Source: a virus (lineage: Duplodnaviria > Caudoviricetes). Taken from it: 64,000 nt of DNA. The stretch lies in the IMG/VR virus record IMGVR_UViG_3300042885_001472, one strand, 5' to 3'. Shown one piece after another: positions 48,584-55,642 of the stretch; position 1 is the first letter of the stretch, and each line of letters begins with the position of its first letter. The position numbers and the translations under genes are program-made. The notes beneath the pieces were generated by a model. The model saw only the letters and a list, made by a program, of their open reading frames with translations. It did no database searches and had not been told where the DNA came from.

Positions 48584-50074
48584 ATGGGTAAAGTAAAAGT
48601 TAAAATAACAGAATCTCAAATGAATTATTTATTTGAGAATAGTAGAATTGATTATTTAAAAAATCAATTTGGTGTAATAAGTAATACGGAATTTGAAGAA
48701 CTTTCAAAAGCTGAAAGAACAAAAGGAAGGGGTAGAAAACCAAAAGACGTAACACCTTCAGATGTTGAAGGTACTGAGACACCAAAAGAAAAGAATTATA
48801 CATTAACTCCAATTAAAACACCAGAAGGTGGGTTAATCGCTTTAATCTTAACGGATGAGAAGGGTAAAAGTAAAGTTAGAATTTCAGAAGAAACTTTTAA
48901 TAATATAGTTAACGCTGATCCAACAAATAATAAAATTTATGTTCAATGGTTATTAAAAATTTTAATTGAGTTCATCAAACATAAAGATTTTGAAGAAGCG
49001 GCCAGATTTGTTGATGAAGATTTACCACAATTAAGTCAAACATTAGTGGTTTTTGATGAAGTCAAAAATCTTAATAAGTTTAAAACTTACGCGGCAAATG
49101 AACCTGGATTACCTAGTAACCCTTCAAATATTTTAAGTTATACTTCAATAACACAACTTTATTTGGCTATTGAACCTTATATTGAAAAATCTGATGCTAG
49201 TGATTTAGAAAAAGCGTTAAATAAATTTATTAAATTAAAGGAAGCTAAAATTGTTTATGAAGATAGTAAATGGTTAGTTTATGAACCATTAACAAGAGAA
49301 GCTAACTGTGCTTTACCAAATCCTGGTTTAGTTAAATTTTGTACTGCTAACCCTGGAAATAGTTACTTTCAAAGATACACCTCAGAAGGTGGTAACTTAG
49401 GTCCTGGTGGAGAAAAATCAAGAATTTACGATATTATAAATAAAAAAGTGTTGACTGGTGAAAGTGGAGAAGTTTATCAATTCCATTTTGAAAGTGAACA
49501 ATGGAAGGACGCTAGTAATGGACCTAATATAAATCTTGTAAATTTTTTTAGTGCTAATCCAGGATTAGGTCAATTTTTTAGTGACATCTTAAAAGACTTA
49601 GCTAAAAGACTTAACGTTAATGACTTAGAAAGAAATAAATATTTAAGAATTTTATCACAAATTGGTGAAATTGATAATATTTTAGAATATTTTGATGTTG
49701 ATTCTGAATCAATAGATCTTAAAAGTTATAGACTTAAAAATTTATCTTCTGATATTAGTAATTTTAAAAATTTATACTCTTTATCACTTAATAATGCTGG
49801 TTTAAAATCATTCCCAAATGAGATAACTAAACTTAGTAATTTAGCGATATTATTTGCACCAAATAATAATATTAAAGAACTACCTAAAGATTTTGGGGAT
49901 TTAAAAGAGTTACACGTACTTAATCTTGAAGGTAACCCACTTAAAGAATTGCCGGAATCTATTTCTAAATTGAATGGTAATTTCTTAAAAATTAAACTTC
50001 CTAAAGAGATGTCTGAGGAGGCTAAAAGTAGAGCCACAAAATTATTATCAAAAACGACAATTACTTGGGTATAA
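48584..50074 (+). CDS. Leader-bearing protein with C-terminal leucine-rich repeats
   Basis: About four LxxLxLxxNxLxxLP repeats (LHVLNLEGNPLKELP); the N-terminal region is paralogous to 40430. Confidence 0.8.
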   Translation: MGKVKVKITESQMNYLFENSRIDYLKNQFGVISNTEFEELSKAERTKGRGRKPKDVTPSDVEGTETPKEKNYTLTPIKTPEGGLIALILTDEKGKSKVRISEETFNNIVNADPTNNKIYVQWLLKILIEFIKHKDFEEAARFVDEDLPQLSQTLVVFDEVKNLNKFKTYAANEPGLPSNPSNILSYTSITQLYLAIEPYIEKSDASDLEKALNKFIKLKEAKIVYEDSKWLVYEPLTREANCALPNPGLVKFCTANPGNSYFQRYTSEGGNLGPGGEKSRIYDIINKKVLTGESGEVYQFHFESEQWKDASNGPNINLVNFFSANPGLGQFFSDILKDLAKRLNVNDLERNKYLRILSQIGEIDNILEYFDVDSESIDLKSYRLKNLSSDISNFKNLYSLSLNNAGLKSFPNEITKLSNLAILFAPNNNIKELPKDFGDLKELHVLNLEGNPLKELPESISKLNGNFLKIKLPKEMSEEAKSRATKLLSKTTITWV

Positions 50075-50162: not shown

Positions 50163-50306
50163 ATGGGTAAAAAAATTAGATTAACTGAATCAGAATTAAT
50201 CAATCTTCTTGAAAGAATCGTAACAGAACATAAAAAAGAAGAAAAGATGAATAAAATTAATGAAAGTAGAAGAGAAAAACTTCAAAATCGTAGAAGATTA
50301 AAATAA
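50163..50306 (+). CDS. 47-aa basic peptide consisting mostly of the shared leader (missed by the ORF track)
   Basis: MGKKIRLTESELINLLERIVTEHKKEEKMNKINESRREKLQNRRRLK*; ATATTTAT at about 50114; terminator follows. Confidence 0.65.
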   Translation: MGKKIRLTESELINLLERIVTEHKKEEKMNKINESRREKLQNRRRLK

Positions 50307-50336
50307 AAAAAGGGGATTTAATCCCCTTTTTTTTTG
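50305..50336. terminator. Bidirectional terminator
   Basis: AAAAAAGGGGAT-TTA-ATCCCCTTTTTTTTT between convergent genes. Confidence 0.85.
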
Positions 50337-51596
50337 TTACTTACCTATTTTTATTACAATCTTATCTTTAACCTTATCAAATGTTATTTTAATAACAGTA
50401 TTTTCTTTATCTTCATTCCTTAAAATCTCTTCTGAAATAGGATCTTCAATAAACTTTTGAATAGCTCTATTTAAAGGTCTAGCCCCAAATTTCTCATCAT
50501 ATCCTTCTTTACCTAAATATTCTTTAACTGAAGAATTAATTTTTAACGTATAACCAATTTCTTTACTACGTTTTTCTAGTTTTTTAAGTTCAATTTCCAC
50601 AATTTTATGAATATCTTCTTGTCTAAGTGAATTAAAGATAATGATATCATCTAACCTATTAATAAACTCTGGCGCGAATTTCTTTTTTAACTCCTTATCA
50701 ATAATTGATTTTTTTTCTTCCTCAATAACCACACTTTTACTTTGTGTTGAGAATCCAATACCAGTACCAAAATCTTCTAAATGTCTAACACCAATATTAG
50801 ATGTCATAATGATCAAACAATTTTTAAAATTAATTTTTCTACCTAAACCATCAGTCATTTGACCATCATCTAACATTTGTAATAAAATGTTAAAGGTATC
50901 TGGATGAGCTTTTTCAATTTCATCAAAAAGGATAACACTATATGGTTTTCTTCTAACCTTTTCAGTTAATTGTCCACCATCTTCATGTCCCACATATCCC
51001 GGAGGGGCTCCGACTAATCTTGATATCGCGTGTTTCTCCATATATTCACTCATATCAATTCTAATTAAAGAATCTTCTGAATCAAACATATATTCAGCCA
51101 ATAATTTCGCTAAATAAGTGTTGTGTGATAAAATACCATTAGTATAATATCTACGATTAGAACCTTCTTTTAATTCAAGGTCATACATTACTTCTTCATA
51201 ACCTAAATTGGTTAATTGTGTAACCATTGAATTTAGAGGTTCACCATTATCATTATATTGTGTTATAATTATATCACCTAATTTTAAATCTTTAACAAAA
51301 ACTTCATCAAAATTAATTGGATTAACTTCATTGTGTTTAAACACAATATGATTATCAGCACATTTAAGCTCTTTTCCATCACTTAATTTAAGATGATATA
51401 CTTCATAGGGTATTGTTTTATGTAAAGCTTCTATGTCAACAAAACCATCATCAGTTAATACTTCGTAATCATTAATTTTGGTTGTTTTAGTAATCTTTTT
51501 TAAAGATTCTAATTCATGTTTATCAAATAATAAAACATTATCTAATTTCTCAAGTCTTTTTTGTATTTCCTCTACCCTACTCATTTTATTTTCCAT
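50337..51596 (-). CDS. clpC: ClpC part 3: IntC-2 (159 aa, 51120-51596) plus the rest of AAA+ D2 (260 aa)
   Basis: CADNH block B and YYTNGILSHN|T terminus; then YLAKLLAE, RIDMSEY, GAPPGYVG, LFDEIEKAH, GIGF (ClpP-docking loop), GARPL. Own TATATTTG promoter at 51609-51616. Confidence 0.93.
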   Translation of the reverse strand: MENKMSRVEEIQKRLEKLDNVLLFDKHELESLKKITKTTKINDYEVLTDDGFVDIEALHKTIPYEVYHLKLSDGKELKCADNHIVFKHNEVNPINFDEVFVKDLKLGDIIITQYNDNGEPLNSMVTQLTNLGYEEVMYDLELKEGSNRRYYTNGILSHNTYLAKLLAEYMFDSEDSLIRIDMSEYMEKHAISRLVGAPPGYVGHEDGGQLTEKVRRKPYSVILFDEIEKAHPDTFNILLQMLDDGQMTDGLGRKINFKNCLIIMTSNIGVRHLEDFGTGIGFSTQSKSVVIEEEKKSIIDKELKKKFAPEFINRLDDIIIFNSLRQEDIHKIVEIELKKLEKRSKEIGYTLKINSSVKEYLGKEGYDEKFGARPLNRAIQKFIEDPISEEILRNEDKENTVIKITFDKVKDKIVIKIGK

Positions 51597-51616
51597 ATTT
51601 TATTTTTACAAATATA

Positions 51617-53098
51617 CTATTTTTCATTTAGAAAAACAATGCATTTATTTATTATTTCTTGTTTATTATTTTTATAATCATATTCACTAATATGTAATAC
51701 TTGATAACCAGATTCTAATATCATTTTATCTCTTTTTTCTTCTCTTAATGAATTTTCTGGTGTTGACCTATGATAGTAAGTACCATCAAACTCAATAATT
51801 TTTCCCTTAACTAAATCAATAAAATCTGGTAATATTACACCATTTAACAATGATAATCGATATTCATTATTTTTACCACTATCATCAATGTCACCTTTAT
51901 TAAATGTCGCAAAGAATATATTATCGTTTTTAATACTTGGTTCTGTTTCTAATATACCCCAAAATAACTGTTGTGATATTTTACTAAAATTAGTTCTTTT
52001 ATAATTAGTTAACCACTTATTTTGTCTTTCATTAAATCTTTTTAATCCGTCTTTTTCACCATATTTCTGGAGACAAATTTCTAAACTAAATGTTGTTTGT
52101 CTTTCAGTTACTTTTTCTTTAGATTGTTGATACGTGAATCCTCTATTAACCCAATAACTTATATTAGATGGTAATAACCTACTTTCATAATCAATATGTT
52201 TTAAAGCATTTAATTGATTGTTTACTACCATAATTTTAGCATCTTCTTCAGAGTATCCTTTATCCACCCAAAACTTAACCTGGGATGGTGTTTGACATAT
52301 TTTATTAATCTCTTCTTCAGAATAACCCAATTTTTGTAAATTATCTTTAGAAACTACAAACCTATCTTTAACCATCATAGAATTTTTACTTTGTATTTTT
52401 GAAATATTACTTTTAGCTTCTTCTTCAGAGTAACCTTTACTAACCCAACTATCAACACATAATCTATTAGACTTGACTATAACATCACTCAATTCTTTTA
52501 GTTTAACTTCAGCTATGTCTTTAGGTAGATACGCATTATATAAATTAGATTTAGAATATCCTTTAGTTTCACAAAATTTATTTGAACACCCAGTAATTTT
52601 ATAATAAAATAAATCTGATATATTTTTTATATTCTTTTTAGTTAATATTAAGTCTTCACCACAAATATTACATTTTGGGCGTCTGTTAGATATAAATTCA
52701 CCACCTTTAAATATTATTTTAATACTTTCATTAAATTCAATTTTATTTTTTTCATTAAGTTTGGTTTTTACACCAATATTAGACCTTTCTTTAGTTATGT
52801 TTGAAATCTTGTTTTTACCATATTCTTTAGACCAACCGCGTTCTAACCAAAAATCAAGTGTTAATAGATTAGATTTTTTAAACCCAAACTTACTCGGTAA
52901 CCATCTATTAAATCTAACCCATTTTATAAGACCATCTTGTGTCAACATATCTTGATAAATTAAATTTATTTTTTCAGTTATTAATTGACTTTCAAAATTA
53001 ATTTTATTGTTAATATTGACCAAATATTCTGTGAACTCATTAGATGTTTTAAAAACTTCTTTAACTTCTTGCCTTTTTCTATCTTTTAAAAATTGCAT
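51617..53098 (-). mobile_element. Free-standing putative homing endonuclease (Vsr/DUF559-like PD-(D/E)XK) between the IntN-2 and IntC-2 genes
   Basis: C-terminal PDF..IIEFDGTYYH..RD..GYQVLHISEYD; five W..[KR]G[YWF]S.E repeats; CxxC..CxxxxC motif; GATATTTAT upstream. Confidence 0.75.
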
Positions 53099-53183
53099 AT
53101 TTATTATGTTTAATAATAAATATCACGAAGTTTTGAAAAAGACCTATTTGTTGGAAAATATTTTTAGGGTGAAGTGGGATGAG

Positions 53184-54662
53184 TTAGTGTTTTATCCTAT
53201 CTATTAATTCATTAATATCAATTTTTTCAACTAAATTAGTACTTTTATTTCTTATAACTATCTGAGTATGAGATGTAAAACATTTACCAACTCCTGTTGG
53301 ACCAAGGAAGATGAAGCTTCCTATAGGCCTTTTTGGGTTCTTAATACCCACCCTATTCCTTCTAAGAGCTTTCGCAATTTTCTCTACCGCTTCGTTTTGA
53401 CCGATAACTTTATCACCCAATTCTTTTCCCATATCTAAAAGTCTTAACCCCTCTTTAGTTGAAACTTTATTAAGTGGGATACCGGTCATCATAGAAACAA
53501 CTTCCGTTATTGATGATTCATCAACAAGACTTCTTTTATGGTTTAATTGTACCTCCCATAATTTTTTAGTTTTTTCTAAATCTTCATTTAGGATTCTTTC
53601 CTGATCTCTCAGTAAAGCGGCCTTTTCAAATTCTTGTGTCTTAACAACTGTGAGTTTTTTCTCCTTTAATTCAACAAGTTTCTTTTCTAATTCAACAATT
53701 TCTTTTGGTGGTTTAACAACAACTTGAGCTCTAGCTCCAGCTTCATCCAAAATATCAATCGCTTTATCTGGGAATTCTCGATCTGTAATATACCTTTCAG
53801 CTAACTTAACACATTCTTCAATAGCTTCTTTAGAATACTCAACTTTATGGTAATCTTCATACTTACCCTTAATATTATTTAAAATTGTTATAGTATCTTC
53901 TGGGGATGTTGGGTTAACCATAACTTGTTGAAATCTTCTAGTTAAAGCCCCATCTTTTTCAATGTTCTCTCTAAATTCATCTAATGTAGTCGCCCCAATA
54001 ATTTGGAGATCTCCTCTAGCCATCGCTGGTTTAAAAATATTTGACGCGTCAAGTGATCCGGAACTATTTCCAGCTCCAACAATTGTATGTAATTCATCAA
54101 TGAATAAAATTACATCTCTATTACCAACTAATTCGTCAAGAATACTTTTCATTCGTTCTTCAAACTGACCACGATATTTTGTACCGGCCACTAATGAAGA
54201 AAGATCTAAAGAAACAATTCTTTTACCTATTAATGTTCTTGGGGCTTTACCCTCTTTAATTTTTAACGCTAAACCCTCAATAATTGATGTATTGTGTGAT
54301 AAAATACCATTAGTGTAGTAACGTCTATTTGAATTTTCTGTTAATTCAAAGTCATACATAACTTCTTCATAACGTAAATCATTGATTTCAGAAATAACGC
54401 TAACAATAATTTGACCATTACCATCATCGGTTAAAATTTCATCACCAATATTTAAATCCTTAACAAAAACTTCCACAAAATCTTTATAGAAAACAATATG
54501 GTTATCAGCACATTTTAATTCTTTACCATCAGATAATTTAAGATGATACACTTGATATGGAATTGTTTTATGTAACTTTTCCAATTTTTTAAACCCATTA
54601 TCAGTTAAGATACTGAAGTTACTCATATCAAATGATTTTGTAAATTTTTTTAATTCTTTCAT
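53184..54662 (-). CDS. clpC: ClpC part 2: IntC-1 (124 aa, 54291-54662), rest of D1, UVR/M domain, D2 Walker A (336 aa), then IntN-2 (32 aa, 53187-53282)
   Basis: LSHN|TSIIEGLA, LVAGTKYRGQFEER, LFIDELH, IGATT, PDKAIDILDEAG, UVR helix, FIFLGPTGVGK|CFTSHTQIVIR. Confidence 0.93.
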   Translation of the reverse strand: MKELKKFTKSFDMSNFSILTDNGFKKLEKLHKTIPYQVYHLKLSDGKELKCADNHIVFYKDFVEVFVKDLNIGDEILTDDGNGQIIVSVISEINDLRYEEVMYDFELTENSNRRYYTNGILSHNTSIIEGLALKIKEGKAPRTLIGKRIVSLDLSSLVAGTKYRGQFEERMKSILDELVGNRDVILFIDELHTIVGAGNSSGSLDASNIFKPAMARGDLQIIGATTLDEFRENIEKDGALTRRFQQVMVNPTSPEDTITILNNIKGKYEDYHKVEYSKEAIEECVKLAERYITDREFPDKAIDILDEAGARAQVVVKPPKEIVELEKKLVELKEKKLTVVKTQEFEKAALLRDQERILNEDLEKTKKLWEVQLNHKRSLVDESSITEVVSMMTGIPLNKVSTKEGLRLLDMGKELGDKVIGQNEAVEKIAKALRRNRVGIKNPKRPIGSFIFLGPTGVGKCFTSHTQIVIRNKSTNLVEKIDINELIDRIKH

Positions 54663-54719
54663 ATATTTTATTTTTTAGATTCGTTTTTTCCCTTTTATTA
54701 TAAATGGTAACGTATTTAA

Positions 54720-55544
54720 TTAGGGATTAGATAATGTTTTCAATAATTCTTCAATAGTAGTTTTTATCACTTCACCTGTTAAATCATTTCTCATAACAAC
54801 CTCAGTATCAGAACAAATACACTTACCAACACCCGGGTCGCCTATCAAAACGGGATTATTTTTCTTACGTCTACTCAAAATTTGAGCAACTCTTTGAATC
54901 TCATCATCTCTACCAATAACTGGATCAATTTTACCTTCTTCAGCTGATACCGTAATATCTTTAGAAAAATTATCTAAAATTGGTGTTTTACTACTAGTTT
55001 TAGTGTACTTCTTTTTTTCTGGTTCAATTGGACTACTTTCTTGTTCGTCACCTTCATAACTCGCCATAATACTTAATTCTTTAATTTTTTGTTTAAAACT
55101 ATTATAATCAACCTCAAAATCATTTAATAAAGAAGCTATGTCAGATTTAGAATTTAACATAGACAAAATCAAATGATTTAAATCAATAAACTCTGACTTT
55201 AGACTTACCGCCTCATTATCTGAATTATTAATTATTTCTGTACTATCCTTATTTAGGGGTAATATGTTATACTTTTTTTGTACTCTAGGTACGATATTTT
55301 GTTGACAATTAAATTGTAACTTAACTATCAATTTTTTAGTATCAACATTCATACTCACTAATGTTTTAACCCCCATATTATTATTATCTCTAAGTATTGA
55401 TAATAAGATATGTTCAGGTCTCACATTCACATCATTAAATTCTTTCGCGGTATCAAACGAAGAGTTCATAATTTGTTTCACTTTAGGTATTACTCTTTTC
55501 ATATTGATTAAGTTTAGTATTTTTTTTCTTAAAAGTCCAATCAT
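54720..55544 (-). CDS. clpC: ClpC part 1: Clp N-terminal repeats, D1 Walker A, then IntN-1 (33 aa, 54723-54821)
   Basis: [47 protein letters not shown]|[11 protein letters not shown]. Confidence 0.93.
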
Positions 55545-55642
55545 TATATAAATATCTTCATAAAATTGTTACTTTTTTTAAAATGAAAAAAAATATGTTA
55601 AAAAACTTTTTTTATTAGAAAATAAGTTATACATTTGTGATT

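Follow-up and report, generated by a model that had tools for sequence, protein, structure and literature searches.

The stretch of DNA analysed here, referred to below as the window, comprises 64,000 nucleotides of the viral record IMGVR_UViG_3300042885_001472 of IMG/VR (Duplodnaviria; Caudoviricetes). On its minus strand, positions 50337-55544 hold four co-directional open reading frames (ORFs), as read directly from the stop and start codons, three of which carry pieces of a ClpC protein and the predicted halves of two split inteins. Part 1 (54720-55544) encodes a Clp_N domain, the motif GDPGVGK and then a Cys-initiated peptide of 33 residues. Part 2 (53184-54662) starts with 124 residues that run to SHN, followed by a Thr, the rest of the first AAA+ domain (D1), its lid and a UVR-type middle domain, and it terminates in GPTGVGK and a second Cys-initiated peptide, of 32 residues. 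Part 3 (50337-51596) consists of 159 residues to SHN, a Thr, the second AAA+ domain (D2) and a D2-small domain. Both insertion points lie between the Lys and the Thr of a Walker A loop (GK/T, the slash marking the insertion), one in D1 and the other in D2. The N- and C-terminal intein halves are called IntN and IntC, with the numbers 1 and 2 for the D1 and D2 sites. The borders given in a preliminary description of the sequence agree with this layout, since the Cys codon of IntN-1 begins at 54821 and the Asn codon of IntC-2 ends at 51120, both on the minus strand. The longest ORF of part 1 begins at 55544; its likely true start is the ATG at 55502 (MKRVIPKVK...), because relatives begin at the equivalent Met and the match to homologues of 823 residues is free of gaps. 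The features of the locus, in the direction of reading, are as follows.

55543..55572, minus strand: sigma-70-like match GTAACA-18-TATAAT (10/12), the best one upstream of part 1; candidate operon promoter
54822..55544, minus strand: part 1 N-extein, Clp_N (Pfam E 2e-15) and first half of the D1 Walker A motif (GDPGVGK)
54723..54821, minus strand: IntN-1, 33 aa; Cys1, beta-hairpin, helix; D1 class, Asp at position 13
54663..54719, minus strand: gap between parts 1 and 2, 57 nt; two TAA stops, in frame with both ORFs, no endonuclease gene
54291..54662, minus strand: IntC-1, 124 aa; terminal SHN, then Thr+1
54570-54662, minus strand: class-specific N-segment of IntC-1, residues 1-31; Lys in the GFxK motif
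53283..54290, minus strand: D1 extein, 336 aa; rest of AAA+ D1, AAA_lid_9, UVR-type middle domain and GPTGVGK half of the D2 Walker A motif (Pfam)
53187..53282, minus strand: IntN-2, 32 aa; D2 class, Lys at position 13
51617..53098, minus strand: free-standing homing-endonuclease-like gene, 493 aa, in the D2 gap
51120..51596, minus strand: IntC-2, 159 aa; extension, class-specific N-segment, shared core, terminal SHN, then Thr+1
51513-51596, minus strand: N-terminal extension of IntC-2, 28 aa
51420-51512, minus strand: class-specific N-segment of IntC-2; Asp in GFVD
50340..51119, minus strand: D2 extein, 260 aa; AAA_2 (Pfam E 2e-58) and ClpB_D2-small (E 6e-24)
50305..50333, minus strand: intrinsic terminator, 13-bp stem and T run, directly after part 3

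Each of the two elements has the Cys1, the block B His (..CADNH..), the block F Asp (..MYD(F/L)EL..), the terminal His-Asn and the Thr+1 (..SHN/T) of an intein. Since these class 1 catalytic residues are intact in both, the elements can be read as two split inteins with a short IntN and a long IntC. The split lies after block A and leaves 33+124 aa at D1 and 32+159 aa at D2, encoded by separate ORFs. Their sequences mark them as paralogous, atypically split class-1 inteins. Comparison of the IntC profile with the PDB gives gp41-1 as the best match (E 3e-11), followed by CatC (6DSL, 2e-9) and VidaL (3e-8), and a single sequence is enough to match CatC (6dsl_B, E 3e-7). The Pfam model Intein_splicing (PF14890) is matched at 24.4 and 23.4 bits, below its cut-off of 35.8.

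The fold was predicted for the D1 intein alone, as the natural read-through of IntN-1, a 20-residue linker and IntC-1, a construct that can be folded because parts 1 and 2 share a frame with two TAA codons between them. Short rows holding only IntN were misaligned by MAFFT, either onto block B, reflecting the pseudo-symmetry of the Hint (Hedgehog/intein) fold, or by being split, and they were left out of the folding alignment. The AlphaFold2 (AF2) model has a mean predicted local distance difference test score (pLDDT) of 77, with IntN-1 at 91-93 (strand, strand, helix), IntC-1 at about 90 and the linker disordered. A Foldseek search with this model ranks VidaL (6vgv) first, with a template modelling (TM) score of 0.85, and gp41-1 reaches a TM score of 0.85-0.87 over the full length of the intein. 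There are 68 PDB matches at E<=1e-3, and the best 50 of these 68 are nearly all inteins, with a few bacterial intein-like or Hedgehog Hint domains. The shared frame of parts 1 and 2 (window 54663-54722) may be due to chance (1 in 3) or may be a trace of a once contiguous or endonuclease-free state.

The intein family is large, with 3582 cluster representatives at E<=1e-3, 326 at E<=1e-30, and at least 499 loci in IMG/VR; no further copy was found in the 64-kb window. Every family locus that was read has the element at the GK/T or GK/S of a P-loop, and among the interrupted proteins are terminase large subunits, clamp-loader-like and SbcC/Rad50-like ATPases and Clp proteins. A single intein family moves among the P-loop GK/T sites of unrelated ATPases, and in the window it has entered both of the tandem AAA+ domains of one ClpC.

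Joining the three exteins gives a protein of 823 aa that aligns without gaps to uninterrupted 823-aa metagenome proteins at 97.1-97.8% identity, with identical residues at the junctions. The best of these matches (P0007) is 97.8% identical over 823 gap-free residues, and a close homologue (P0008) is named ClpC by its source. The Pfam matches over the three exteins, namely Clp_N, two AAA+ modules, a UVR-type middle domain and D2-small, are the set expected of ClpC, a class I Hsp100 protein. Furthermore, an intein-free locus (L109, on an 81.6-kb contig) is syntenic with the window, having a KTSC gene on one side and the genes for a 47-aa protein and a leucine-rich repeat (LRR) protein on the other. 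The DNA of the two loci aligns as three colinear blocks of 93.5%, 89.8% and 84.5% identity, of which the 89.8% block covers the D1 extein (54293-53283), and the breaks fall at the two GK/T codons. What the window has in addition is about 0.53 kb (IntN-1, the 57-nt gap and IntC-1) and about 2.16 kb (IntN-2, the endonuclease gene and IntC-2). The occurrence of uninterrupted ClpC in syntenic relatives of the same lineage indicates that the inteins are dispensable mobile insertions.

Proteins related to part 2 show four architectures: uninterrupted; D1 intein only, with IntC-1, D1 and D2 in one chain (about 30 clusters); D2 intein only, with the N-domain, D1 and IntN-2 together (about 14 clusters); and both inteins, represented at the 90% clustering level by about 20 distinct middle pieces that have IntC-1 at one end and IntN-2 at the other. 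All four presence and absence states consequently exist in related phages. In the first set of viral contigs collected, most relatives have the D2 intein alone, and one locus (L012) has both inteins, each with its own endonuclease gene. The pieces of the window itself recur on 13-15 contigs, the longest of 294,686 bp, and the locus is present in 24 lake-water or freshwater runs dated 2016-2024. The IntC-2 of the window is 92% identical to that of locus L001, whereas the ClpC exteins of L001 are merely 64-66% identical, so the element moves between diverged phages.

The intein-free allele came from a protein look-up. Among the contigs of four lake runs no clean joint was seen at the intein borders, these contigs being fragmentary and of low depth and the search being affected by cross-matches to the Clp genes of other organisms. 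A megablast search of 24 kb against deposited phages gave just two short ClpC-like matches, and blastn gave distant clpC similarity alone, with uncultured phages of about 640 kb as the best hits. Taken together, the comparisons identify the locus as a genuine clpC gene of a freshwater jumbo phage, fractured twice and apparently built by two paralogous, atypically split inteins.

Other insertions have been found in the D1 Walker A region of relatives. Locus L008 (3387-6284), and likewise L009 and L010, have an insertion of about 364 aa in this loop within a single ORF, with a LAGLIDADG_3 match (E 1.6e-6); this is likely to be a full-length, unrelated intein in that P-loop, and the D2 site of these loci has the split intein. 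The middle pieces P0017, P0092 and P0095 begin with intein halves of another sequence type, ending in ..SHN/TGKT, which by their sequence represent a second split-intein lineage at a second position of the D1 P-loop, two residues upstream of GK/T.

The preliminary description regarded the two IntC halves as near-identical and asked what this would mean for splicing. The two blocks that it quoted are present as written, but overall identity is just 60% (79/131 in BLASTP, E 1e-54, between the 124 aa of IntC-1 and the 159 aa of IntC-2). Similarity is unevenly distributed, with 40% identity in the first 30 residues, 96% in the block-B segment, 41% in the variable middle and 86% in the C-terminal segment. 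Block B has a proportion of synonymous differences (pS) of 0.57, a synonymous divergence (dS) of about 1.06 and a nonsynonymous divergence (dN) of 0.06. Such high synonymous divergence attributes the protein identity to purifying selection, and it rules out recent copying or gene conversion as the origin of the identical blocks. The quoted blocks are almost invariant in all ClpC inteins of the related viral contigs, at both D1 and D2 sites, and the long identical stretches make up the catalytic core (blocks B, F and G).

The topology and the product sizes in the earlier proposal hold. The IntN peptides are only loosely alike (12/32 identical), and part 2, with IntC-1 at its N-terminus and IntN-2 at its C-terminus, has the arrangement used for intein-mediated cyclisation. 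Splicing of IntN-1 with IntC-2 would join the N-domain to D2 with a hybrid Walker A motif, giving a protein of 487 aa when counted from the likely start, and the predicted cyclisation product of part 2 would be D1 alone, with 336 aa.

In contrast to the core, the IntN peptide and the first ~30 residues of IntC (the N-segment) are specific to each class: the N-segment is 40% identical between the D1 and D2 types and 83-93% within a type, with dN/dS of 0.04-0.18. A charged residue in this segment varies together with one in IntN. Position 13 of IntN, which the model places at the hairpin tip, is usually Asp among the 33 peptides from the D1 site, three of which have Asn or Lys instead; almost all peptides from the D2 site have Lys there, as do most family members inserted in other proteins. 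In the GFx(K/D) motif, just past the first turn of IntC, the D1 type has Lys and the D2 type Asp. Both positions are charged in 45 IntN/IntC pairs, each taken from a single locus; of these, 36 combine Lys in IntN with Asp or Glu in IntC, nine combine Asp in IntN with Lys in IntC and none is discordant. One D1 pair is an Asn:Asn variant, and a terminase intein with Asp12-Asn13 in IntN has Lys in IntC. The pair that would cyclise part 2 is like-charged in most cases: of 15 distinct middle pieces, 12 have Lys both as the IntC-1 residue and at IntN-2 position 13.

A tree of the IntC core built without the N-segment interleaves D1 and D2 inteins, with seven class changes against a random expectation of 8.4. 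For instance, the D1 inteins of L030 and L031 group with the D2 intein of L045, and the D1 intein of L107 groups with the D2 intein of L001 and with IntC-2 of the window. When the N-segment was included, the two D1 inteins then available formed a clade with 100/99 support. This interleaving of cores, combined with the class-specific N-segment, indicates that the catalytic core has been exchanged between sites and the module next to IntN has not; the copies evolve as mosaics. An AF2 model of part 2, based on 20 aligned middle pieces, still gives IntN-2 a hairpin and a helix (pLDDT 57-76), and it places the N-segment of IntC-1 at a pLDDT of about 55, compared with about 90 in the presence of the cognate IntN. 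The lower confidence of the model is in keeping with an IntN-binding role of the N-segment and with a non-cognate peptide that fits less well.

The second difference between the halves, the N-terminal extension of IntC-2, had been suggested as a source of orthogonality. The extension is real and spans 28 residues; the proposed role is not supported. Ten relatives in which D1 is uninterrupted or holds an unrelated intein have conserved it, and L012, with both inteins, has another sequence in its place. Being kept where the family D1 intein is lacking and replaced in L012, the extension is no adaptation to that intein. Pfam searches of the extension, and of the longer N-terminal additions of relatives, gave nothing above cut-off. 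An additional candidate, that the extension mimics IntN, arose when MAFFT paired it with the IntN-1 helix in one run; this was possibly noise.

The IntC-2 ORF of several relatives is longer by 60-150 residues at its upstream end, beginning directly where the endonuclease gene stops, and the IntC of these relatives may carry an extra N-terminal domain that has no Pfam match. The extended ORFs lie at L001:7821-8072, L007:7827-, L003:427-837, L021:7614-8072 and L012:11110-11424. Similarly, IntC begins at residues 115-260 in many family members from a library of 1.8 billion proteins.

All these data are best explained by three ORFs that yield one ClpC through two trans-splicing inteins with an evolved partner preference, cross products being minor at most; the probability given to this explanation is about 0.68. 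The four ORFs would be expressed together as one operon. Each IntN, consisting of a hairpin and a helix, would dock on the N-segment of its own IntC and so complete the Hint fold, after which two trans-splicing reactions, using Cys1, Thr+1 and the terminal Asn, would rebuild both P-loops. The inverted charge pair, Asp13 with GFxLys at D1 and Lys13 with GFxAsp at D2, would bias the halves towards the cognate partner. The domain-skipped N-D2 protein and cyclic or polymeric D1 would arise at most as minor by-products, and not as a programmed output. The preliminary description had left a choice between protein-level alternative splicing and evolved specificity. The comparative data favour the latter; since close relatives lack the inteins altogether, programmed alternative splicing is improbable.

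A further proposal goes beyond this and is more tentative, being held at somewhat less than even odds: the D1 and D2 types may constitute a naturally evolved orthogonal pair, in which the catalytic core is exchangeable and specificity resides in a small portable module. The module would comprise the hairpin tip of IntN together with roughly the first 30 residues of IntC, the inverted Asp/Lys pair among them, and would be kept by selection against domain skipping and cyclisation.

Several points weigh against an evolved partner preference. The proposed contact between IntN position 13 and the GFx(K/D) residue is read from covariation only, and this covariation represents few independent events: an independent-contrast test gave no significance, there being too few contrasts (2) on well-supported branches. 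Because IntN and the N-segment lie on either side of the split, they are linked and would be inherited together even without selection. The two AF2 runs compared above, with the cognate peptide and for part 2, rested on different alignments. One D2 IntC core naturally has partners of two IntN types sharing only about 29% identity, so that IntC may tolerate varied partners, and IntN-1 is no further from either of these D2 types than they are from each other. In locus L028, the D1-site intein has the Lys:Asp combination, its IntC-2 also has Asp and its IntN-2 reads Val13-Asp14; with Asp in both IntC halves, this locus indicates that the charge rule is not universal. Finally, charge swaps between inteins sometimes give orthogonality and sometimes leave cross-activity (bioRxiv 10.1101/546465), and atypical inteins have been reported to associate mainly via hydrophobic clusters (PMC11766414).

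A rival explanation is that the inteins are promiscuous and have never been selected for specificity. By-products would then be tolerated, with co-translation from one operon, mass action and the steric hindrance to joining both ends of a folded D1 module still yielding enough full-length ClpC. The identity of 86-96% in the catalytic core of IntC-1 and IntC-2, the two IntN types on one D2 core, the persistence of hairpin and helix in IntN-2 of the part 2 model and the two inteins of L028 with Asp in both IntC halves are all in line with promiscuity. Natural DnaE split inteins cross-react (10.1101/546465), and engineered atypical IntC fragments took foreign IntN peptides (PMC3443213). However, the N-segment module has been conserved within each class while the rest of IntC swaps between classes, the charge pair is inverted with 0/45 discordant cases, and the would-be cyclising ends are like-charged in 12/15 middle pieces. 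Promiscuity without selection is judged unlikely, at about one chance in five.

Programmed alternative splicing, which would produce a single-ring N-D2 ATPase and/or a cyclic D1 beside full-length ClpC, is considerably less probable still. The topology permits it, the hybrid Walker A motif would be intact, and the three-piece arrangement is widespread and stable. On the other hand, syntenic phages with an uninterrupted ClpC, whose flanks are 84-93% identical in nucleotide sequence, cannot produce N-D2 or cyclic D1, relatives with only the D1 or only the D2 intein are common, and the recognition modules have diverged rather than converged. There is also no sequence sign of separate regulation. 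It had been suggested that a host-type promoter near 51609 and a motif ahead of part 1 would allow the pieces to be made at different times, but sigma-70-like sites occur in the region at chance level (41 found against 39.8 expected), and the site near 51609, matching at 9/12 positions, overlaps the beginning of part 3. The best promoter-like match, at 55543-55572, lies upstream of part 1 if translation starts at 55502. The ORFs are co-directional and separated by just 57, 85 and 20 nt, and the terminator after part 3 is the sole strong one in the locus. With no excess of promoters, this layout leaves separate timing of the pieces unsupported, and a single operon would be the simplest reading.

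Least probable of all is that the inteins are inactive relics, with the three polypeptides assembling non-covalently or the gene being dead: nothing specific speaks for it beyond the Pfam scores below the gathering cut-off, whereas both inteins have kept Cys1, the His of block B, the Asp of block F, the terminal His-Asn and Thr+1, the catalytic blocks and the exteins are under strong purifying selection and the Hint fold is predicted with confidence.

The clpC inteins can be compared with known systems. The geometry of a short IntN (25-37 aa) and an IntC of more than 100 aa, split between blocks A and B, is that of the AceL-TerL, GOS-TerL, Cat (6DSL) and VidaL (6VGV) inteins (PMC11766414; PMC10189870). 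These inteins likewise come from phage-type metagenomic DNA, and the TerL inteins occupy the Walker A loop of the terminase, where relatives of the window inteins are also found. In contrast to all of them, the host protein here is ClpC, and two paralogous copies are inserted in one gene, at homologous sites of its two AAA+ domains. The conserved 28-aa extension of IntC-2 is another difference from these inteins, and the +1 nucleophile is Thr, as opposed to the Cys+1 listed for AceL-TerL, GOS-TerL and Cat (PMC11766414).

The fractured genes described by Dassa et al. 2009 (PMC2677866) consist of an ORF for the N-extein and IntN, an ORF on the same strand for a Vsr-like or GIY-YIG endonuclease and an ORF for IntC and the C-extein. 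The same order is found at the D2 intein of the window, with the endonuclease-like ORF at 51617-53098; the D1 intein has no endonuclease. The loci of that study, including gp41-1, are fractured once and mostly have the canonical split with a long IntN and a short IntC, whereas the window gene is fractured twice, with short IntN peptides. No Clp, P-loop, Walker or two-split-intein case was found in that paper. The literature searched gave nothing relevant on ClpC with split inteins or on natural genes with two split inteins, which does not prove the absence of such reports.

Two engineered schemes also resemble the locus. Tandem trans-splicing joins three pieces by means of two split inteins and needs orthogonal pairs, a scheme that would be natural here, and the IntC-extein-IntN layout of split-intein circular ligation of peptides and proteins (SICLOPPS) is also that of part 2. 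Compared with designed charge networks, the candidate determinant of specificity would be one inverted charge pair plus neighbouring class-specific residues, orthogonality being inferred in this case.

Split inteins are the main tools for protein ligation; the joining of three fragments requires pairs that do not cross-react, and a short IntN that can be synthesised is prized. The locus and its relatives suggest that nature builds one protein from three pieces with two inteins of the same family, which raises the cross-reaction problem faced by engineers, and the comparison of sequences points to the IntN hairpin tip and the IntC N-segment as the possible seat of specificity. If orthogonal, the pair would be directly useful, its module might be transplantable, and it would set a natural precedent for short-IntN pairs in three-fragment ligation. 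If cross-reactive, it would be a natural case of a phage that tolerates or limits mis-splicing.

Regarding the gene in the D2 gap, the product of 51617-53098 combines a conserved N-terminal domain with a Cys-rich insert, W..KGYSEEEAK-type repeats and, at its C-terminus, a Vsr/DUF559-like nuclease domain (subtype X). Its Pfam matches are weak, with MTES_1575 at E 5e-4 and 20.4 bits (cut-off 38.2) and DUF559 at E 7e-3 and 16.7 bits (cut-off 20.6), and it had no PHROG match; the homologue in L012 reaches the DUF559 cut-off with 21.2 bits. In 10 related loci, homologues of this gene fill the equivalent gap. L012 has an endonuclease gene of 481 aa in its D1 gap, and the 57-nt D1 gap of the window carries none, having either lost such a gene or never had one.

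The gap endonucleases of the window and of L001-L021 have in common the N-terminal domain and the W..KGYSEEEAK-type repeats. Their nucleases fall into two subtypes, a short EFDGTYYH type and a longer, Vsr-like EFHGDMFHG type, which travel with the two sequence types of IntN-2, and the extra Cys-rich insert is present in the endonucleases of the window and of L012. In another three-piece relative (L028:7535-12297), the endonuclease of the D2 gap is broken into an N-terminal stub of 50 aa and a remainder of 464 aa, and the fragments are separated by about 3.2 kb of genes on the opposite strand, including an IS1595-type transposase. Beside clpC, the LRR gene is a single ORF of 496 aa in the window (48584-50074), whereas the intein-free relative has two copies in tandem (L109:8735-11720).

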